A stretch of 64,000 nt of DNA from Anaerolineae bacterium. GTDB lineage: Bacteria; Chloroflexota; Anaerolineae; Aggregatilineales; Aggregatilineaceae. The DNA lies in the NCBI GenBank assembly GCA_034429275.1, contig DAOUFU010000013.1:3313-67312 (forward strand), given 5' to 3'. The notes beneath the pieces were generated by a model. That model was not told the DNA's origin and did not search any database. It worked only from the letters and a program-made list of their open reading frames with translations. Shown piece by piece: positions 47,041-57,904 of this stretch (its first letter is position 1; every line of letters begins with the position of its first letter). Made by a program: the position numbers and the translations under genes.

Positions 47041-47334
47041 ATGACGAATGCTGAGCACCTGCCCGACCTTGAGCTGTGGCAGCCGCGGCTGGCCCGGTGG
47101 GGCGAGCGGCTGCGTGCCCTGCGGTTGAGCGGCCCCGCCGGGGTGATCCTGGATGTGTTGGAACCGCTGGGGCCGTTCGGCGCTCACCTGCTGTGGGTGA
47201 TGCAGCCGGCGCTGGCGCTGGTCGTGCGCCGCGACGACGTGGACGCGCTGGCGCGCCTGCTCGATGCACCGGGTGGGTTCGCCTGGCTGCGCGATCACCT
47301 GCTGGACGAGCAGGATCGCTCCCCGGAACGGTAA
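47041..47334 (+). CDS. Small hypothetical protein (97 aa), first gene of the unknown-function operon
   Basis: The ORF begins at the leaderless-type ATG. Its central hydrophobic stretch (VILDVLEPLGPFGAHLLWVMQPALALVV) is on the same strand and closely spaced with downstream genes. A competing antisense ORF was rejected. Confidence 0.45.
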   Translation: MTNAEHLPDLELWQPRLARWGERLRALRLSGPAGVILDVLEPLGPFGAHLLWVMQPALALVVRRDDVDALARLLDAPGGFAWLRDHLLDEQDRSPER

Positions 47335-48827: not shown

Positions 48828-48948
48828 GCGCCGATCCACCGGTTACGAGTGTGGTTTACGATTGTGGTCTGTCCGTCGAGTGCCGGACGCAGCAAGCCGC
48901 GTCCCTCTTTCATCCAACATTGGATTTGGCTAAAGTCAGGAAGACGTT

Positions 48949-51900
48949 ATGCCGGACGATCCTAATCTGTTTGATGACGCTGATTTTTGGTCCGGGGAGA
49001 CGCCGGGCAGCACTAACTCTGCAGGGGGCGCTCGTCCGCCCTGGCAGAGCCACCCCGGCGACCCTTCGGCGATGACGGGCGCGCGTCCGGCGGAGCTTCC
49101 GCCCTGGCAGCAGCATCCCGCATCCTCCACGCCTGCCCGGTCAGCCCCCATGCAGCCGCCGCCCTGGCAAGCTCATCCCGGTCCGACTCCCACGCCGCCG
49201 CCTGGCGGCCAGCCCGGTGAGCCAGCCTGGGACGAAATCGGGTGGGCGGTTGATCAGCCGGATGCAGACCGCGCCGCCTCAGCAGCAGGGGCTGACGAAT
49301 TGCCCCAGGGCCTGACCGGGATGCTGCCCTGGCGCAGCGAGACTCAGAGCGCGCCGGCAGGCCCGCCCTCCAGTGCGGACGATTCCGCATGGTTGGAGTC
49401 GTTTGGGCAGACGGGGTATGACAGCAGTTCCAGCCTGCCGCAAGATGACGGTGACCTCAGCTGGCTGACCGGCGACAGCAGCAAGCCCGTTGAACCCGCT
49501 GCCGAGACCGGGGCTGATGGGCTGCTGTGGCCGGATGATGACTTGTTCGCTGGATTGGAAGCGGATTCCACCCCGCCAGCCGAAACCGAAACAGCCCCCT
49601 CTAGCGGAGTCATTCGCCGCCTGGCGCGGCCCCAGGATTCGGTGCCGCCAGCCGTCGAAGCTGCGCAGCCGCAAGCCGATCTCACCGTTGAAGACCTGTT
49701 CGACAGCGCCTTTGGCGATGCCTTCGAGGACATCCTGGGCGAATCCGCCTCTGGCACCCCCGCAGACGCGGGTACAGCGGGCGAGGGTGATGCGGATCTC
49801 TGGCCCGGCGATGAGGCAGCCGCCGAGAAGTCGTTCGCCGAAGAACAGCCGCCCGCCGCCGGAGACCTGCCCGACTGGCTGCGCACCGAAGCCACGCCTC
49901 CAAGTGCGCCTCTGGCTGAAGCATGGGGCACCGAAACAGCCGAGGCTGACACATCCGGCGAAGAAGAAACGCTCCCCGCCTGGGCCGAAGATGGTGCATC
50001 GTTCGCGGCGCAAAGCACCCCCACCAATCTGTCCTATGATGAGTGGGAACAAGCACAGATCGCCCGCGAGCAGGAAGCCGCCAAAACCGAAGAAGATCGC
50101 CTGCTCGAACAGGTCCCCGACTGGTTCGCCCAGCCCGATCAGCCTGCCGCTCCCGCGCCTGATTCTGAACAACCCGCCGGGCCTGAATTCGTGCCGGATT
50201 GGTTCACCGGGCTAGAAGCCCAGAACCTGGAAGCTGCACCCGATTGGTTCCAGAAAATTGACTATACTGCCGATCCGCTGGCGGCCCCTCCCAGCGAGCC
50301 AGAACCTCCGCCGGTCCATGATGCCGTCATGCCGGACTGGCTGCGCCCCGATGGGCTATTGGAACTGGCGGGCCAGGAAGAGTCACCGGCTGAAAGCGAG
50401 CAGCCAGCGGCGGATGAATGGGCAGTCGATGAACCCTTGCCCGATGAGATTGACTTTTTGAACCGCCTGGGTGGAGCATCCTCTGGCCGGGGAAAACAGC
50501 CGCCTGCACCGCCTCCTGCGCCACCGGCAGCCGCGCCGGGCGACGAGGAATGGCGGCGAGCTTTTGAGCCTTCGCCGGAACCGGAGTTTGCCCAGGCCCC
50601 ACCGCCCGTAGGCGATTTCGTCGAGCGGTTTGACCCGTTCGCGCCAGTCGAACCGGCTCCGCCCCCTGCGCCTGAAGCGGCGGCATTCGATCTTGGGCCA
50701 GGCACGCTCGATTGGCTGCAAGACCTCTCTGCTGAGGACTTGAGCGAACCTGAGCCGGAACCGGTCTTCCCGGCAGAACAGCCTGCTGCACCCGAACCTG
50801 AACCCGCCGAGGATTTGCTGCTGGAAGAAGTGAAGGTAGACAGCCAGGCGATCGACAGTCTGCTGGGAATCAGCGACTCGAGCATGGCGCTGGTTGTACC
50901 GCAAGAGCAACCGGTCGCTGCGCCGGAAGAGATCACTTCGTTCGAGTGGCCCGAAGAAGACCCCTGGCTGGCGCTGGAAAAAGCCGAAGCCGCTGCCGAT
51001 GAACGCTTCGCAGGGGCCGAAGTCTTCCCCGAAGAGCAAGCTGCGGAAGACCTGCTCGCCGCCGAGATATTCGAAGCAGATCGCCCCACAACACCAGAGC
51101 GACCGGCCACCGCTGCCAAAGCGGCCCCCGCGCCGCCGCCTGCCGAGGAACCTCCGGTGGCCCCGCGAGAAGCGGCCCGTCCCCAGTGGCTCGAAGAGAT
51201 GCGCCCTGCCGATCTACCGGTGACGTTGATCGCAGGCGGTGCCAGGCTCGATATGATTCAGCACAGCCTGGACGATTTGCCCGATGGGCTGCGCAGCCTG
51301 CACGAGCGGCTCAGTGACGAGCAATCGTTCGCTGAGGCCACGCGCAGTGTCCAGCCGCCGCCTGAAAGTGGCCCACTGGCCGGTATTGTGGACTCGCTGT
51401 CTGCAGTCCCGGCGGCGCTGCCTACCATCCGGCGAGAGGCTATCGTCGAAGGGTTGGTGATCTCACCGGAAGAACAGCGGCGGATTGAGCGCCTGCAGGC
51501 CGTGCTCGACCTGCTGGCTGCCGAAGAGGAAGAAGCCGAAGAAGCACCCGTCGAAGGGTTTGGCTTCAGCTCGACCGCGCCGTTTGATTTTGGCGGCGAA
51601 GAAGTGGACGAAGAAGCGGCGGCGGTGGCTGAAATTTCCGCCAAATCGCGCCCACGCCGCCCGCACCGCTACAAATTTGACCGGCTGGTGATCCTGCTGG
51701 CGATGCTGGCCGCGCTGGTCGTGCCGTTTGTCACCGATGTGGTGCATTTCGCCGCCGATCCGCCCCCACTGGCAGGCGATCAAGCGGCGGTAGCGAGCGC
51801 AGTAGACGCGCTGCTGCCCGGCGATATTGCGCTGGTGGCGCTGGAATATGGCCCTACGGCAGCGGGCGAGCTGGATGGGTTGGCCGAGGCTGTGCTGCGC

Positions 51901-52578
51901 GACATCATCGCACAGCGCGCCGTGCCGGTCATGATCAGCACGAACCCGGCAGCCGCGCTGCACGCCGAAGCCGTGATCGCGCCGCTGCGTGACGATTCCC
52001 TGCTGCTCAAGGCGCGTGGCGACGGCGAATCTGCCCTGGCCGCCGGGGAAGATTACGTGCTGCTGGCTTATCTGCCCGGCGAGGCGGTTGGTGTGCGCTC
52101 GCTGGCCCAGCCGCCGAGCGGAGCGGAAGCCGTGCACCCGGCCTTCAAGACAGACCTGCGAGGCGAAGAAACGGCGCTGACCGTGCATAACATGGCAACA
52201 GATGTCGCCCTGATCGTCGTCGTGAGCGAAGACTCTGCCGGGGTGCGGACCTGGGCGGAACAGCTCGAAAGTGTGCCCACGCTCAAAGTGGCGCTGGTGA
52301 CCGCCGCCACCGAACCGCTCGTCGAGCCATACGTCAATGCAAAGGGATATGTCGGGTACCTGGCCGGGGTGCGCGATACCTACAGCTACAACGCGGCACG
52401 AAACAGCACCACGCGCGAGCCATATGTTGTACCCGAGGGCATCACGTTTGACGTGCCCGACCCCGAAAGCGCGCGCTGGCACAGCATGGCCCTGGGCGCG
52501 GCGGCGGCAGCAGCCGTGATTGCACTGGGCACAATGGTGAATCTGATCCGGGCTTTAGGACGGAGGCGCAGCCGGTGA
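48949..52578 (+). CDS. 1209-aa acidic Pro/Trp-motif repeat protein with two C-terminal TM helices bracketing an approx. 270-aa domain
   Basis: AGGAAG RBS. The first ~900 residues are low-complexity (D/E/P/A-rich) with PPWQxHP x3 and at least 8 copies of a [hydrophobic]-P-D-W-[LF] motif. TM1 is LVILLAMLAALVVPFV and TM2 is ALGAAAAAAVIALGTMVNLI, followed by an RRRSR tail. Confidence 0.75.
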   Translation: MPDDPNLFDDADFWSGETPGSTNSAGGARPPWQSHPGDPSAMTGARPAELPPWQQHPASSTPARSAPMQPPPWQAHPGPTPTPPPGGQPGEPAWDEIGWAVDQPDADRAASAAGADELPQGLTGMLPWRSETQSAPAGPPSSADDSAWLESFGQTGYDSSSSLPQDDGDLSWLTGDSSKPVEPAAETGADGLLWPDDDLFAGLEADSTPPAETETAPSSGVIRRLARPQDSVPPAVEAAQPQADLTVEDLFDSAFGDAFEDILGESASGTPADAGTAGEGDADLWPGDEAAAEKSFAEEQPPAAGDLPDWLRTEATPPSAPLAEAWGTETAEADTSGEEETLPAWAEDGASFAAQSTPTNLSYDEWEQAQIAREQEAAKTEEDRLLEQVPDWFAQPDQPAAPAPDSEQPAGPEFVPDWFTGLEAQNLEAAPDWFQKIDYTADPLAAPPSEPEPPPVHDAVMPDWLRPDGLLELAGQEESPAESEQPAADEWAVDEPLPDEIDFLNRLGGASSGRGKQPPAPPPAPPAAAPGDEEWRRAFEPSPEPEFAQAPPPVGDFVERFDPFAPVEPAPPPAPEAAAFDLGPGTLDWLQDLSAEDLSEPEPEPVFPAEQPAAPEPEPAEDLLLEEVKVDSQAIDSLLGISDSSMALVVPQEQPVAAPEEITSFEWPEEDPWLALEKAEAAADERFAGAEVFPEEQAAEDLLAAEIFEADRPTTPERPATAAKAAPAPPPAEEPPVAPREAARPQWLEEMRPADLPVTLIAGGARLDMIQHSLDDLPDGLRSLHERLSDEQSFAEATRSVQPPPESGPLAGIVDSLSAVPAALPTIRREAIVEGLVISPEEQRRIERLQAVLDLLAAEEEEAEEAPVEGFGFSSTAPFDFGGEEVDEEAAAVAEISAKSRPRRPHRYKFDRLVILLAMLAALVVPFVTDVVHFAADPPPLAGDQAAVASAVDALLPGDIALVALEYGPTAAGELDGLAEAVLRDIIAQRAVPVMISTNPAAALHAEAVIAPLRDDSLLLKARGDGESALAAGEDYVLLAYLPGEAVGVRSLAQPPSGAEAVHPAFKTDLRGEETALTVHNMATDVALIVVVSEDSAGVRTWAEQLESVPTLKVALVTAATEPLVEPYVNAKGYVGYLAGVRDTYSYNAARNSTTREPYVVPEGITFDVPDPESARWHSMALGAAAAAAVIALGTMVNLIRALGRRRSR

Positions 52579-53252
52579 CTCCTGAGACTCTTGATCTGAT
52601 CGCCGGGTGGGCGGGCCTGGTGCTCACCCTGATGATATTCAGCTACCTGCTGGGCGATAATGCCCTCTACCGGGTGGCAGTGCACGTCCTGGTGGGTGTC
52701 GCAGCCGCCTATGCGGCCATCGTGGCCGTCGAGAGCGTGCTGGTGCCCTGGTTCGACCAGACCCTGCTGGCCAAAGCCAGCGACAATGATGCAGCGACTC
52801 TGGCCGCGCTGCGTGTGGTTGGGCTGATTCCAGTGCTGGTGGGCGTGCTGCTGCTGCTCAAATCCTCGACTCGGCTGGCTCCGCTGGGCGATCTGGGCAT
52901 GGCCTGGATCATCGGAGTGGGCACGGCGGTGTCGCTGGTGGGAGCGGTCGCCGGAACGATCCTGCCCCTGGCGCGCGAAACGGGCGAAAGTCTGGGCGAT
53001 AATGCGCTGGAGGGAGTGATCCTCGTGGCGGGGGTGATCGTCACGCTGCTCTACTTCCAGTACCTTGCCGTTGAACGGGGCGGCAAAATGCAGCGCCCCC
53101 TGGGGCTGAGCATCCTCAGCCGGATCGGGCAGGGCGTCATCGCGCTCACCCTGGGCGCGCTGTACGCCGGCGCGATCCTGACCAGCCTGGCAATCTTCAG
53201 CGATGTCATCCGCCGGCAGCTTGAGTTCATTCTGGACCGGATAGGGGGCTAG
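52575..53252 (+). CDS. Hypothetical polytopic membrane protein (225 aa)
   Basis: The GTG start overlaps the upstream stop (GTGA). It has about 6 hydrophobic helices. I recognised no family. Confidence 0.65.
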   Translation: MTPETLDLIAGWAGLVLTLMIFSYLLGDNALYRVAVHVLVGVAAAYAAIVAVESVLVPWFDQTLLAKASDNDAATLAALRVVGLIPVLVGVLLLLKSSTRLAPLGDLGMAWIIGVGTAVSLVGAVAGTILPLARETGESLGDNALEGVILVAGVIVTLLYFQYLAVERGGKMQRPLGLSILSRIGQGVIALTLGALYAGAILTSLAIFSDVIRRQLEFILDRIGG

Positions 53253-53256
53253 GGCT

Positions 53257-55086
53257 ATGGCGTTTGAGCACATGAACTCCGTGCTGGTGGCGGATATTGG
53301 CAACGCGCACACGCGCCTGGTCCTGATCGACCTGGTCGAAGGGAAATATCGCCTGATCGCCTCATCGCGGGCGCGCACGACCGCCCAACCACCCCTGAAC
53401 AGTGTGGGACTGGGGCTGGAACATGCCGCCCAAATCATGACCTCGACAATTGGCCGCACCTTGATCGACCCCGACCCGGAGCGGCTGTTCAAAATGCCGG
53501 AAGAAGATGGTCACGGGGTCGATGGATTTGTAGCGACCAGCAGCGCCGGGCGTCCGATGCGCGTCTTTTTGGTTGGGGTGACGCCGGAAATCAGCCTGAC
53601 GAGCGGTCGCCGCGCGCTGGGCGGCGCATACGTGACCATCACCGGCATGCTCGGCCCGCACGACACGCGCAGCGATACGCAGAAGATCAACGCCATCCTG
53701 CGCGACGATCCCGATATGATCCTGATTGTGGGTGGGACAGATGACGGCGCGGACGATATTCTGCTCGACCAGGTGCGGTTGGTAGCCCGCGCGCTGTCCT
53801 TGATCCGGCGCGGCACGATGCCCACCGTGTTATTTGCGGGCAACCAGGCGGTGCGCAAAGCTGTGCGCGCCATCCTCAACCCGATCACCGAGGTCTATAC
53901 CGCCCGCAATGTGCGCCCCACGCTGGATGAGGAGCAGTTGTTCCCGGCACAGCTTGAGCTGGCACTGGTTTATGATGACTACCGCGCCAAATCGCCTGGC
54001 GGTTTCGCCGAAGTCGGGCGGCAAAGCCAGATCGGCATCGTGCCCACTACCCAGGGCTACCTGAGCGCGATGCGCTACATGACTGCGCTCAGCGAACGCC
54101 CGGTCGGCCCGCTGTGTATCGACATCGGCAGCAGCAACAGCATGATGGTCACCAGCATCGATGGTGAGGTCCAGGTGGCCATCCGATCCGATCTGGGCAT
54201 GGGGCATTCGATGGTGAGCACGCTGGAACGGCTGGGCGCAGAGCATATCACGCGGTGGCTGCCGTTCGATCTAGCTGAGCGCCCGCTGCTGGATTATGTC
54301 CACAACAAGCAGCTGCGCCCCACCACCATCCCGGCCACCTCCGAAGAGCTGATGCTGGAGCAGGCCTTCGCGCGCGCCATCACCGTGCAGATGATCGAGG
54401 AGCTTCGGCCAAGCTGGAACCAGGGACGCAGCCTGCTGCTGCCCCCTTTCAGCCCGATCATCGCAGCAGGCGCGATCTTGACCGAGGCTCAGCATCCCGG
54501 AATTTCGGCACTGATGCTGCTCGACGCGCTGCAGCCGGTCGGCATCACCGAGCTTCGGCTCGACCCGCACAACCTGCTCTCGGCGCTGGGCGTAGTGGCT
54601 TATCTCAAGCCGGTGATGATGGTGCAGGCGCTCGAAGCGGGCGGGCTGGTCACGCTGGGGACGGCCTTCTGCCCCCTGGGGCATGTGCGCCAGGCAAAAG
54701 ACGCCATGACTATCCGCGTCCGCCTGCCCGATGGCCGCGTGCTCAACAAGCGGCTGCTGGGCGGCGATCTGTGGATGGCCCCGGTGCTGCCGGGCATCGC
54801 GTGCGAAGTGGAGATTCGACTGCGGCGCGGCCTGTCGATCAACGGCAAGCAGCGCATCCGTCAGCGCGTGATGGCCGGGGCAGCAGGCATTATTTTTGAC
54901 GCGCGTGGGCGTCCTTTCAACCTGCCGCGCCCCCGCGACCGCGTGGCGCGCTATCTCCGCTGGCAGCAGGCTATGACCGGCCAGGAACCGGGCGTCGCGC
55001 CGCCCGAACCGCCGCCGCCGGACGAAGCGTTGATCCCCGATCTGGGCGAACTGACCGGGCTGGAGGATAGGGTCGAGGTGAGATAA
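53257..55086 (+). CDS. GlmL/MutL-type ASKHA (actin/Hsp70/sugar-kinase fold) ATPase, 609 aa
   Basis: Phosphate-1-like VLVADIGNAHTRLVLID, phosphate-2-like LCIDIGSSNSMMV and the GlmL-family-like IVGGTDDGADD motif are present. It has a Pro-rich acidic C-terminal tail. RBS is GGGGG. Confidence 0.6.
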   Translation: MAFEHMNSVLVADIGNAHTRLVLIDLVEGKYRLIASSRARTTAQPPLNSVGLGLEHAAQIMTSTIGRTLIDPDPERLFKMPEEDGHGVDGFVATSSAGRPMRVFLVGVTPEISLTSGRRALGGAYVTITGMLGPHDTRSDTQKINAILRDDPDMILIVGGTDDGADDILLDQVRLVARALSLIRRGTMPTVLFAGNQAVRKAVRAILNPITEVYTARNVRPTLDEEQLFPAQLELALVYDDYRAKSPGGFAEVGRQSQIGIVPTTQGYLSAMRYMTALSERPVGPLCIDIGSSNSMMVTSIDGEVQVAIRSDLGMGHSMVSTLERLGAEHITRWLPFDLAERPLLDYVHNKQLRPTTIPATSEELMLEQAFARAITVQMIEELRPSWNQGRSLLLPPFSPIIAAGAILTEAQHPGISALMLLDALQPVGITELRLDPHNLLSALGVVAYLKPVMMVQALEAGGLVTLGTAFCPLGHVRQAKDAMTIRVRLPDGRVLNKRLLGGDLWMAPVLPGIACEVEIRLRRGLSINGKQRIRQRVMAGAAGIIFDARGRPFNLPRPRDRVARYLRWQQAMTGQEPGVAPPEPPPPDEALIPDLGELTGLEDRVEVR

Positions 55087-56195
55087 TGGCATACCGTCCT
55101 GAGACCACTGTGATCATGGGCATGGCGCGCATCCTGCGCGACCGATCCCTTCCCCCAAAGGCTATCTCGCGCCCGGTCCACACCCTCACCGGCCAGAAAG
55201 TCGAGGCCAGCACGGTGGTGCTGGAAGGCGACATGCTGAGCGATTATCACGTTATCGATGCCGCCGCACATTTCCGCCTGCGCGACCTGCCGATGCTCGC
55301 CAGCATGATCCACGTCGGCGTAGGGGACCGGGTGACCAAGGGGCAAGAACTGGCCTCGCGGCGCAAAGGACGCGGCCCCAAAACGCTGCTCTCGCCTATC
55401 GATGGCATCGTGGTGCGGGTGGATGGCGGGCAGATCACGCTGCAAGAAAGCGCCGCCCAGATCGAACTGCTGGCGCGCATCCCCGGCGAAGTGGAAGTCC
55501 TGGAATCGGGCACGGTGCGTGTGACTACCAGCGGCGCGATCATCCAGTGTGCCTGGGGCAACGGCAAGTTTGTCTATGGGACGTTTCGCTTCTTGCCGGA
55601 TGATGGTTTCGCTGGCCTCAGCCGCGAGGACGTGCGCATCTCGCAGTACCGCGGCGTGGTTATCATCAGCCCCATCCCCATCGACAAAGGCGATCTGCTG
55701 GTCGCCCAACAGCAAGAGCTGAGCGGCGTGGTGGCCCCCAGTATGCCCGCCTACTTGCGCGAATTCGCGATGGGGCTTACATTTCCCGTAATTGTAACAG
55801 AAGGATTCGGCCAGCGGCGGTCTACCGCGTTGATCTATCACCTGTTGCAGAGTAACATCGGGCGTCAGGCGACCTTTGACGCGGTCATCCCCGATCCCTG
55901 GTCGGCAGACCGGCCTGAGATCGTCATTCCGCTGCCGTCAGGGGGCATTCTGCCGCCAACACCGGCCTTTGACCTGCCTTTAGAGACTGGTGCGCAAGTG
56001 CGTATCACACGCGCGCCCTGGGATGGATTGCTGGGTGAGATTGTGGAGCTGCCGCAGGCTCCGCAACTCGTCGATAATGGGCTGCGGCTGCCGTGCGCCC
56101 AGGTACGGCTGCCGGACAACCGGACCGTGACCGTCCCCCTGGCGAACCTCGAACTGCTGGGGACGTTGGGTGGGGCGCGGAGCACGGGCCAATAG
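55086..56195 (+). CDS. Hypothetical protein with barrel-sandwich-hybrid (lipoyl/HlyD-like) hairpin and KOW/SH3-like C-terminus
   Basis: The start overlaps the upstream stop (TAATG). VGVGDRVTKGQELA...SPIDGIVVRVDGGQITLQ resembles a barrel-sandwich hybrid. GAQVRITRAPWDGLLGEIVEL resembles a KOW motif. No TM helix. Confidence 0.6.
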   Translation: MAYRPETTVIMGMARILRDRSLPPKAISRPVHTLTGQKVEASTVVLEGDMLSDYHVIDAAAHFRLRDLPMLASMIHVGVGDRVTKGQELASRRKGRGPKTLLSPIDGIVVRVDGGQITLQESAAQIELLARIPGEVEVLESGTVRVTTSGAIIQCAWGNGKFVYGTFRFLPDDGFAGLSREDVRISQYRGVVIISPIPIDKGDLLVAQQQELSGVVAPSMPAYLREFAMGLTFPVIVTEGFGQRRSTALIYHLLQSNIGRQATFDAVIPDPWSADRPEIVIPLPSGGILPPTPAFDLPLETGAQVRITRAPWDGLLGEIVELPQAPQLVDNGLRLPCAQVRLPDNRTVTVPLANLELLGTLGGARSTGQ

Positions 56196-56209
56196 CGCGG
56201 AGGACTTAT

Positions 56210-57904
56210 ATGCCAGACGATGACCTGTTTCGCGATGATTTGTTTCCCGAAGACGAGAGTGAATTCTTTGACGACCTGGCCAGCGAAGAGCCATTTTTCC
56301 CTGGCGAAGAGGATGAGTTCCCCTTCGATATGGACGAATCCGCCCAAGAGCAGGGAGGGGTCAGCCGGGCCTTCAAGATTCTCGGTGGGCTGCTGCTGGT
56401 AGCAGCCATCGGCGTAGTCGCGCTGGTGATCTGGTTGGTGCTCGGAAGCGACCAGGGCCCCACCGACAACGAGAGCACCTCGACGGCAGTGATTGCCACC
56501 AATACGGCGGTTCAGATTGCCTATCAGAACACGGTGACGGCCCAGGCATTAATGGTTCAAGCCACCGAAAATGCCGTCCAAACGCAAATCGCGCTCGCAA
56601 CCGCGACTGAAAACGCCTTCCAGACTCAGCAGGCCGTCGCAGCCACCAGCGCCGCCCAAACGGCCACGGCTGAGTTCATTGCCAGCCAGACGGCCCAGGC
56701 TGCCGCCACGCAGACGGCGATTGTGCAGGCCACCCAGGCCGAAGCGGAGCGGCTGCTGCGCATCATCAAGGGTCAGCTGGTCGGCGAAGGCGAACTGAGC
56801 TTTGCCAATGCAACCCTGCGGCTCTACCGCGACGATGGCAACGGCGAGTTCAACCCGGCGGCTGGTGCTGCCATTCCCACGCCAGCGCCTCTGACCGGTG
56901 CGAGCACGGCTGTGCCGCTCCCGGCAGCCCAGGCAACGACCGTCCCGGTGAATACCATCACCTACGGCGCGACCGTGGAAGGACTGCTCGAAGGGAACGC
57001 GCCCGACCTGTGGTATTTCTCCGGTAAATCGGGCGACGTGGTAACGGTCAGCGCCGTGGCGGCCAACAGTATGCAGACCGATATGTTCCTCGACCTGAAG
57101 GGGCCAAGCGGAAGTTCGCTGACGACAGACGACGACTCCGGCGGCAATTTCAACGCGTCGATCATCGCCTATGAGCTGCCCGCGACCGGCAACTATGTGA
57201 TCGAAGTCAGCAGCGTCTCTGGCCCCGGTGCGTATACACTGTCGCTGGAACTGGGCGGGCCTGCTTCTGCCCCAGGGGCTAACCCGGCCCCCACTGCCGA
57301 AACGGGCGGCGTGAGCTATGTGCCGCGCGCGGCAGGGCTGAACATCGGCGCGATCGAGGTGGCTGCCCAGGGCAACACCACGCCGGTCCCGACCAATACA
57401 CCTCAGCCTGCAGGCGGCGATGAAGCCGTCAGTGAGCTGATCGTGCCGCAGGATGGGTCGTTCGATTTTGGCGAAATGGAAGAAGGCACTTACTGGATCG
57501 AGATCGACTACGACTCGCTGTCACCGGCGCTTCAGGCCCTGTATCCGCCTGGCCAGCCGATCATCTTCCAGGTGATTGTGCCCACATCGGGAGAACCGAT
57601 CATCATCAGGCCGCCTGTGCCCGGCGCAACGCCCACATCTACAGCCACCGCCACCCCGGCAGGCCCCTCGGCCACGCCCGGCGGCGAATCGCCAACCCCG
57701 TCTGGACCGGTGACAATTACCCCTTCGCCCGAACCTGGCACTCCGGCCACACCGGCTGCCCTGCCGACCACTGGCTTCTTTGGTGACATCGGCGACTCGA
57801 CGGGCGCGCTGGAGGGATCGAGCGGGCTGATGATCCTGGCGATTGCCGCAGTGGGGCTGGTTGCTGTAGTGTTCATCGCACGGCGGCTGCGCACATCTGG
57901 CTAA
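56210..57904 (+). CDS. Surface protein with N-terminal acidic cytoplasmic tail plus TM anchor, Q/A/T-rich stalk, PPC-like beta-domain and C-terminal LPXTG-type sorting signal
   Basis: GGAGGA RBS. N-terminus is MPDDDLFRDDLFPEDESEFFDD, followed by TM ILGGLLLVAAIGVVALVIWLVL. ATENA[VF]QTQ repeats are present. The pre-peptidase-C-terminal-like segment is YGATVEGLLEG...GNYVIEVSS..GAYTLSLE. The C-terminus has LPTTG (57761-57775), a hydrophobic helix and an RRLRTSG tail. Confidence 0.7.
   Translation: MPDDDLFRDDLFPEDESEFFDDLASEEPFFPGEEDEFPFDMDESAQEQGGVSRAFKILGGLLLVAAIGVVALVIWLVLGSDQGPTDNESTSTAVIATNTAVQIAYQNTVTAQALMVQATENAVQTQIALATATENAFQTQQAVAATSAAQTATAEFIASQTAQAAATQTAIVQATQAEAERLLRIIKGQLVGEGELSFANATLRLYRDDGNGEFNPAAGAAIPTPAPLTGASTAVPLPAAQATTVPVNTITYGATVEGLLEGNAPDLWYFSGKSGDVVTVSAVAANSMQTDMFLDLKGPSGSSLTTDDDSGGNFNASIIAYELPATGNYVIEVSSVSGPGAYTLSLELGGPASAPGANPAPTAETGGVSYVPRAAGLNIGAIEVAAQGNTTPVPTNTPQPAGGDEAVSELIVPQDGSFDFGEMEEGTYWIEIDYDSLSPALQALYPPGQPIIFQVIVPTSGEPIIIRPPVPGATPTSTATATPAGPSATPGGESPTPSGPVTITPSPEPGTPATPAALPTTGFFGDIGDSTGALEGSSGLMILAIAAVGLVAVVFIARRLRTSG

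Follow-up and report, generated by a model that had tools for sequence, protein, structure and literature searches.

The window analysed here is a 64,000-nt stretch of contig DAOUFU010000013.1 (positions 3,313 to 67,312) from an Anaerolineae bacterium of the family Aggregatilineaceae. It contains a tight row of five plus-strand genes, A-B-C-D-E, running from 48949 to 57904 (Table 1), and two of the encoded membrane proteins, A and E, start with acidic-aromatic peptides that may serve as cytoplasmic docking tags. Conserved across Anaerolineae, whose members are filamentous, the A-E operon encodes a so far undescribed envelope-spanning module: no described system matching it was found in the papers and family libraries searched, and the literature search returned no paper on PF13941, DUF6754, or GlmL linked to actin-like proteins in Chloroflexi. 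A and B gave no family match in the family-library searches. The disordered region of A carries a net charge of -144, 25 Trp residues and 9 xW[LF] motifs.

By translation, the N-termini of A and E read as the original prediction had written them, MPDDPNLFDDADFW from 48949 and MPDDDLFRDDLFPEDESEFFDD from 56210, and both are, as it had also said, strongly acidic with aromatic residues. The cytoplasmic tail of E is made up of repeated [DE][DE]x[LF]F units. The motif that the prediction drew from the two peptides, LF-x-DD-x-F, does not literally fit A, which reads LF-DD-AD-F, so that a one-residue gap has to be allowed.

Table 1. Features of the A-E operon. Positions are those of the window; aa, amino acids; TM, transmembrane.
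Feature	Positions	Strand	Description
Gene A	48949-52578	+	1209 aa; translation starts MPDDPNLFDDADFWSGE; cytoplasmic acidic/Pro-rich disordered region of ~905 aa, TM helix 914-932, ectodomain of ~245 aa, C-terminal TM helix 1179-1197
Start signals of gene A	48931..48943	+	in-frame TAA 48931-48933; AGGAAG ribosome-binding site 48938-48943
N-terminal peptide of A	48949..48990	+	aa 1-14, MPDDPNLFDDADFW
Internal peptide copy in the disordered region of A	49528..49554	+	aa 194-202, WPDDDLFAG
Second internal acidic-Phe cluster in A	49687..49731	+	aa 247-261, VEDLFDSAFGDAFED
Gene B	52575-53252	+	225 aa, polytopic membrane protein; without Pfam family; synteny kept
Gene C	53257-55086	+	609 aa, GlmL/MutL-type ASKHA (actin/Hsp70-fold) protein; candidate peptide reader
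C-terminal beta domain and helix of C	54649..54981	+	aa 465-575
Gene D	55086-56195	+	369 aa, soluble; candidate peptide reader
Ribosome-binding site of gene E	56199..56204	+	GGAGGA, 5 nt before ATG
Gene E	56210-57904	+	564 aa, wall-sorted membrane protein; carries PPC domain
N-terminal peptide of E	56210..56275	+	aa 1-22, MPDDDLFRDDLFPEDESEFFDD
Whole cytoplasmic tail of E	56210..56377	+	aa 1-56; net charge -18, 16% aromatic residues
Juxtamembrane SRAFK of E	56363..56377	+	[SN]R[TSA]F before TM helix
Signal-anchor TM helix of E	56387..56443	+	aa 60-78
C-terminal sorting-type signal of E	57761..57904	+	LPTTG, hydrophobic segment 539-557, RRLRTSG

The start codons of A and E are well supported. 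Specifically, an in-frame TAA lies 5 codons upstream of the ATG of gene A and AGGAAG lies 6 nt before it, while gene E has a ribosome-binding site of its own (Table 1). A Shine-Dalgarno-like GGAG(G/A) or AAGG precedes the equivalent ATG by a few nucleotides in 22 of the 22 E orthologues examined, with GCGGAGG as the version found upstream of the E ATG in most of the family, and many orthologues have in-frame stops a few codons upstream of the start. The public gene calls of NCBI and JGI contain both A and E, identical from the first residue to the last. In a diverged E variant from another sample, residues 1-32 are identical, and later tail residues are changed. The ribosome-binding sites, the public gene calls and this variant show that the true starts do not lie downstream of the peptides, a possibility that had been raised with the original prediction. 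Furthermore, synonymous codon changes (GAC/GAT, TTT/TTC, CTG/CTC) occur at conserved peptide residues, which shows selection at the protein level.

We scanned 116,528 candidate starts of open reading frames of at least 150 aa in the 5.0-Mb genome. A and E are the only matches to the pattern M.D[DE].{0,2}[LFWYIM][FWY].{0,1}D[DE], which was defined post hoc, and a looser pattern matches at a background frequency of about 2.3e-4 per candidate start. These data bear on the simplest alternative, that the resemblance is due to chance or to mis-called starts, so that the peptides are untranslated or their likeness is meaningless. Although the motif is short and of low complexity, and exact MPDD identity is seen in this species alone, the upstream in-frame stops, the conserved ribosome-binding sites, the synonymous changes and the independent gene calls all contradict this alternative, as does the fact that the two matches lie in one operon. 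We therefore regard it as largely refuted and extremely improbable.

We assigned topology by the positive-inside rule, counting K/R residues on the flanks of the TM helices, and the sequence places the N-termini of both A and E in the cytoplasm. In A, the helix at 914-932 has 7 K/R on its N-flank and 0 on its C-flank; in E, the helix at 60-78 has 2 and 0, respectively. The sorting signal of E, with its hydrophobic segment followed by RRLR, indicates that the C-terminus is outside and hence that the N-terminus is inside. The cytoplasmic location asserted by the original prediction is thus borne out by the flank counts and by the sorting signal of E. In addition, the N-terminal region of A starts in other lineages with a zinc ribbon, a cytoplasmic feature.

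E has the features of an LPXTG sortase substrate, namely the motif, the hydrophobic segment, the basic tail and a sortase in the genome, which contains three sortase-domain genes. A [LIVM]Px[TSA]G sorting signal is present in 50 of 88 E orthologues, and the signal [LM]Px[TS]G[FL][FL][SD]D recurs among them. The spacer between LPTTG and the hydrophobic segment is 16 residues, longer than usual, and E gave no NCBIfam match to a curated LPXTG-anchor model.

The operon is present in every relative examined of this order and is widespread across Anaerolineae. Gene C was found in all 41 relatives, and the order A-B-C-D(-E) is kept in every one of the 31 loci taken from relatives; the species collection adds 80 loci that keep it wherever the contig reaches far enough. 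D is nearly always followed by a gene for a bitopic protein. Across Anaerolineae, the 64 distinct A N-termini comprise 47 acidic ones, 9 zinc ribbons and 8 others, and 81 of the 88 distinct E N-termini are acidic. Pro, Ser, Ala or Gly stands at residue 2 in most orthologues.

Within A, the peptide is better conserved than what follows it. The family consensus start is M[PS]DDxN[LF]FDDDxL[LV]PDW[LM]R, of which the PDWL part has decayed to DFW in the window protein, and mean identity to the window protein is 0.55 over residues 1-15 versus 0.14-0.30 over the next 100 or more disordered residues; the original expectation that orthologues would conserve the first ~15 residues but not the disordered region behind them therefore holds for A. 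As relatives keep the acidic start of both membrane proteins, it is probably a docking tag. Three relatives (L032, L033 and L036) have a shorter gene A frame, in which the 5' part reads Arg/Pro/Asn-rich, as if the acidic repeats were frameshifted; these frames could reflect assembly errors in a repetitive region or real truncations.

E proteins of relatives start with MADDELFENLDDF or MGFEDLDDLSELDE, and their tails range from 13 to 100 aa, with net charges of -1 to -43 and 0-15 aromatic residues. Within E sub-lineages, aromatic positions are fixed (F7 in MADDELF, F3 and F8 in MSFDDxNFDD), and the Asn of DDxNFDD is conserved. In Anaerolineales, the E tail is a compact segment of ~24 aa, MSFDDxNFDD...PEESNNRTF, conserved at nearly every residue. 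A core D[DE]xN(x)[FYW][DEN][DE] lies within the first 16 residues in 8 of the 64 distinct N-termini of A and in 8 of the 88 of E, versus 1 of 116,528 background starts, examples being MPDDFNLFDDDD in A of Aggregatilineales and MSFDDSNFDD in E of Anaerolineales.

Two soluble products of the operon, C and D, are candidate readers of the peptides. The PF13941 model matches residues 9-458 of C (E 3e-57; 194.8 bits, cut-off 27), and C lies far below the cut-offs of the corresponding NCBIfam equivalogs (NF040745, 86 vs 475 bits; TIGR01319, 55 vs 204 bits). No glutamate mutase gene is present in the operon, and the neighbours of C encode membrane proteins, acetyltransferases, a kinase and regulators. 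The structural model of C (pLDDT, a per-residue confidence score, 91.8) is composed of an ASKHA core (residues 1-460), an all-beta domain (465-548), a helix (559-573) and a disordered tail. Residues 501-550 are consistently basic across orthologues, with a mean charge of +4.5, and D548, R550, G551, R552, R562 and W569 are near-invariant. The PDB neighbours of C are hydantoinase/acetone-carboxylase subunits, LsrK, FtsA, PilM, diol-dehydratase reactivase and Hsp70, and they include entries for the PilM:PilN(1-12) and FtsA:FtsN(1-29) complexes; all of them resemble C only at the level of the general fold.

The model of D (pLDDT 93.6) contains an N-terminal barrel-sandwich hybrid, a middle alpha/beta part and a C-terminal KOW/SH3-like barrel, which is a common peptide-binding fold. 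Family searches with D return weak barrel-sandwich and KOW signals alone. D carries no signal peptide and is expected to be cytoplasmic. Its residues R276, R306 and R309 are conserved. The CW_7 repeat of Cpl-7 lysozyme is a peptidoglycan-binding element, and the orthologue profile of D residues 134-185 (55485-55640) matches this repeat (PDB 5i8l, E 1.2e-8; 4cvd).

D-family members make up no fewer than 573 loci of the species collection and 2,936 representatives at 50% identity. The matches listed in a D profile search are all close relatives, the named ones being Chloroflexota, and the source-given names among the D-family matches shown are all 'hypothetical protein'. Other Chloroflexota classes have the C-D pair as well, in some cases without membrane partners: at three loci (L145, L149 and L160), distant C-D pairs lie without A, B or E-like genes next to genes for a cupin, a thioesterase-like protein and other soluble proteins. 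One possibility is that C-D began as a soluble module and was joined to membrane proteins later, in Anaerolineae.

Building on the peptides, their start codons, their location and their conservation, we tentatively infer that the N-termini of A and E are cytoplasmic docking tags that bind a soluble partner, with the C-D pair as the likeliest reader. The peptides are short linear motifs in which Asp/Glu cluster about one or two large hydrophobic side chains, most often Phe, and they would act as flexible 'fly-casting' tags: a soluble cytoplasmic protein would offer a hydrophobic pocket with basic residues beside it, into which the aromatic side chains would insert. In this reading, A is a scaffold with a ~900-aa disordered region, and E is a strap anchored in the membrane at its N-terminus and carrying a wall-sorting signal at its C-terminus; B is a polytopic membrane protein, C a GlmL-type actin-fold ATPase and D a barrel-sandwich/KOW protein. 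Docking would tether the soluble protein to A and E, or A to E through that protein. Given several copies in the E tail and one N-terminal plus internal copies in A, binding would probably be multivalent and individually weak. The co-transcribed C-D pair would be the likeliest reader; FtsA and PilM, both of the actin fold, bind tails of just this kind on bitopic partners. The original proposal of a docking motif thus draws support from N-terminal conservation, the starts and the actin-fold precedents, but its placing of the reader within the operon is called into question by the lack of charge co-variation and by similar peptides on FtsW and a protease, both described below.

A number of results weigh against this docking reading, and we set them out here and in the paragraphs that follow. 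Literal MPDD identity of A and E occurs only in this species, and within other genomes the two N-termini are alike in style, not in sequence; the claim that both proteins begin with the same peptide therefore stands for this species but not for relatives, where the starts differ. The likeness is also partly compositional, both tails being acidic and Phe/Leu-rich: when the E tail is shuffled with its composition preserved, 2.8% of trials (p ~0.03) score at least as high as the real A/E alignment, so that a good part of the resemblance follows from composition. When profiles of the first 22 residues of A or E orthologues were searched against the 116,528 candidate N-termini, neither family was linked to the other by these hidden Markov models; the A profile ranks A 5th and E 511th, and the E profile fails to retrieve the window E, short acidic profiles being crushed by composition correction, which makes this search uninformative. 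Furthermore, the motif is not confined to the N-terminus, since internal copies lie in the disordered region of A (Table 1). Taken together, the copies look like multivalent acidic-aromatic 'stickers'; in A, the strongest conservation falls on the N-terminal one. In Anaerolineales, A starts with a zinc ribbon in place of the acidic peptide.

The proposed partners face difficulties of their own. We compared the charge of the E tail with that of C (core, C-terminal domain and whole protein) and of D, and found no complementary co-variation. The sole significant correlation associates a more acidic E tail with a more acidic C (rho 0.65), which is probably a lineage effect. The likeness of C to FtsA and PilM is a general one of the ASKHA fold, with template-modelling scores of ~0.3 by query and 0.4-0.47 by target. 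In addition, conserved Arg residues of C and D persist at two loci (L127 and L137) where E has no acidic tail. No result singles out C or D, the candidates named in the original prediction, as the partner: C has a confident ASKHA model with FtsA and PilM among its neighbours, but the charges show no complementary co-variation.

The same two loci, from one Anaerolineae lineage, encode an E-like protein without an acidic tail (MSQDLRDMLANRKFAIPLI) and an A protein with a double zinc ribbon. Their C has Gln in place of Arg at position 562 and a non-basic C-terminal domain. Seen in two genomes of a single lineage, this is at most a hint that the acidic tail and basic features of C were lost together.

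Part of this evidence would also be expected if the tails had no specific partner and were polyanionic disordered 'brushes' selected for composition, with the N-terminal resemblance as a by-product. Possible roles proposed for such brushes are electrostatic spacing, cation or polyamine binding, or keeping the tail off the anionic membrane. The length, net charge and aromatic content of E tails do vary widely, the A/E similarity is mildly above the composition-preserving null, the profile searches are not discriminating, and tail acidity tracks the overall acidity of C. Composition alone does not, however, account for the fixed aromatic positions within sub-lineages, for the conserved Asn of DDxNFDD, for the ~24-aa Anaerolineales tail that is conserved nearly residue by residue, or for residues 1-15 of A, which form a conservation island in a fast-evolving acidic region of similar composition. 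We consider the brush explanation unlikely, though deserving of some weight.

A further point against the docking reading is that the best-conserved cytoplasmic element of E is not its N-terminus but the juxtamembrane [SN]R[TSA]F, which, as such or as a close variant, ends the E tail just before the TM helix in most orthologues and is close to universal in Anaerolineae. The NRKF variant is kept even in two lineages with a non-acidic tail. Conserved, strongly basic juxtamembrane segments adjoin the first TM helix of both A (RPRRPHRYKFDR) and E (SRAFK), and the acidic peptides might instead fold onto these segments, or onto cytoplasmic loops of polytopic partners, as a regulatory or auto-inhibitory latch within the complex that would not recruit a soluble protein. 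We find this latch improbable: the two to seven basic residues available are too few to offset tail charges of -18 to -144, no co-variation was found, and the idea is purely inferential.

The final set of observations against a reader encoded in the operon comes from elsewhere in the genome. FtsW (contig C93:270-1517; loci L186-L209 and L259-L277), encoded by the SEDS gene that precedes murG, murC ... ftsA in the dcw cluster, has a strongly conserved acidic-aromatic cytoplasmic N-terminus. Its start M[AST]DxPQY[IV][DE]DDxEFNYADAL is found in 15 of 15 family genomes, and most Anaerolineae FtsW N-termini examined keep [PG]x[FY][VIFT] with one or two acidic residues after it, among them GTFVKE in Anaerolineales. 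A membrane-anchored HtrA/DegP-like protease (contig C53:31809-33176; loci L162-L185) starts with MGWKYDDPQFDFQ; its start MGWxFDDFDxFDD is conserved in the family and gives way to an ordinary signal anchor in other families of the order. Similar N-termini on FtsW and the protease suggest that the reader is not private to the operon and need not be encoded by it.

These peptides raise the alternative that a general cytoplasmic hub outside the operon, such as FtsA, FtsZ or another division or elongation organiser, reads A, E, FtsW and the HtrA-like protease, the operon proteins being its clients. The conserved peptides of FtsW and the protease and the missing co-variation of the tails with C or D fit such a hub. 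On the other side, the FtsW motif (Pro-x-Tyr/Phe-Val/Ile-acidic) differs in detail from the motifs of A and E, and a census of acidic-aromatic N-tails before a TM helix, made over the whole genome with a loose threshold, found no enrichment, with 0.33% versus 0.55% at all candidate starts. Two further candidates failed: a sortase hit, 'MTYDITDD', proved to be an internal GTG, the true start being MRDKRPV..., and the N-terminus of an LCP protein, [DE]NTVPTQPHNEP...HWYSFPGQ, though conserved, is another motif. The hit MADDFEDLYDD, from a TIR-domain protein, was set aside, as that protein has no TM helix. We judge an external hub unlikely, though not negligible.

A bolder version of the docking reading would have acidic-aromatic N-terminal peptides act as a lineage-wide 'address code' in Anaerolineae that gathers E, A, FtsW and the HtrA-like protease on a C-D hub, an extension that we regard as improbable. 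If it were true, the operon would be a new kind of division or wall-growth organiser in multicellular filaments, built on an actin-fold branch that, to our knowledge, has never before been linked to membranes. More generally, if the FtsW and protease peptides share a reader with those of A and E, the operon would be linked to cell division or wall growth. The envelope biology of the phylum is poorly known, and a short, conserved and synthesisable cytoplasmic peptide offers a practical handle, as bait for the partner of a class-wide envelope system.

Three more same-strand genes lie upstream of A, starting at 47041, 47396 (DUF6754) and 48168, and the acidic N-terminal peptide is absent from all three. 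The DUF2231-like gene and gene A are 121 nt apart, and in this gap positions 48885-48904 form a GC-rich hairpin followed by CTCTTTCATC, which could be a weak terminator or attenuator dividing the eight-gene row; the count of such hairpin sites is not above shuffle expectation.

Proteins elsewhere in the genome recall parts of A and E. On the minus strand of contig C224, two frames of 913 and 776 aa encode large acidic disordered proteins with PxW[LM] motifs (DPMxWLESLAKRQGA repeats, VPDWLAEAPE and IPSWLTES), one of which ends in a TPR-like domain; the Trp motif of A is thus not unique to the operon. A small bitopic protein of 251 aa (contig C252:6575) combines one TM helix with the acidic N-tail MTRPNLPIEEFPDDFVEEDEDE and a C-terminal domain that is PPC-like, and looks like a short, paralogue-like relative of E.

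Compared with known systems, C resembles GlmL/MutL, the accessory protein of glutamate mutase (PF13941), over residues 9-458, but it scores far below the equivalog cut-offs, has an extra basic beta domain and is encoded among membrane-protein genes in an operon without a mutase gene. The closest parallels in logic for the tails are the GpsB hub, described below, and PilN-PilM and FtsN-FtsA, in which short N-terminal tails of bitopic proteins are bound by actin-fold proteins (bioRxiv 10.1101/2021.11.08.467742). E likewise has a short, conserved, cytoplasmic N-tail (13-100 aa in 88 distinct orthologues) before a single TM helix in the N-in orientation, the Anaerolineales tail of ~24 aa is the size of the PilN and FtsN tails, and at every locus examined the ASKHA protein C is encoded alongside. 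PilN has a hydrophobic tail, FtsN a basic one. The tails of A and E differ in being strongly acidic, aromatic and often multi-copy, and in reaching 100 aa in E or 900 aa in A. C, moreover, belongs to the GlmL/hydantoinase-like branch and not to the FtsA/PilM branch. Binding of A and E would be predicted by analogy, and no complementary charge co-variation was seen between the E tail and C or D.

The logic of one motif on several clients recalls GpsB, which acts in the cytosol as an adaptor and binds several cell-wall enzymes through their cytoplasmic mini-domains (PMC6335420). Here, too, several envelope proteins (A, E and possibly FtsW and the HtrA-like protease) share a similar short motif at their cytoplasmic N-termini, which could direct them to a single hub. 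The motifs recognised by GpsB are basic and Arg-rich. Those of A and E are acidic, the E tail having a net charge of -18, and no GpsB-like protein is implicated, so that the analogy is one of logic alone.

In chemistry, the peptides resemble acidic-hydrophobic terminal tips that recruit partners, such as the C-terminal DDDIPF of SSB, the C-terminal acidic/GFGLFD peptide of the ribosomal P-stalk and the C-terminal peptide of FtsZ. These tips are C-terminal and sit on soluble proteins, whereas those of A and E are N-terminal and sit on membrane proteins; common to all are an Asp/Glu run ending in or around Leu/Phe, a free chain end, a disordered tether and, often, several copies per complex.

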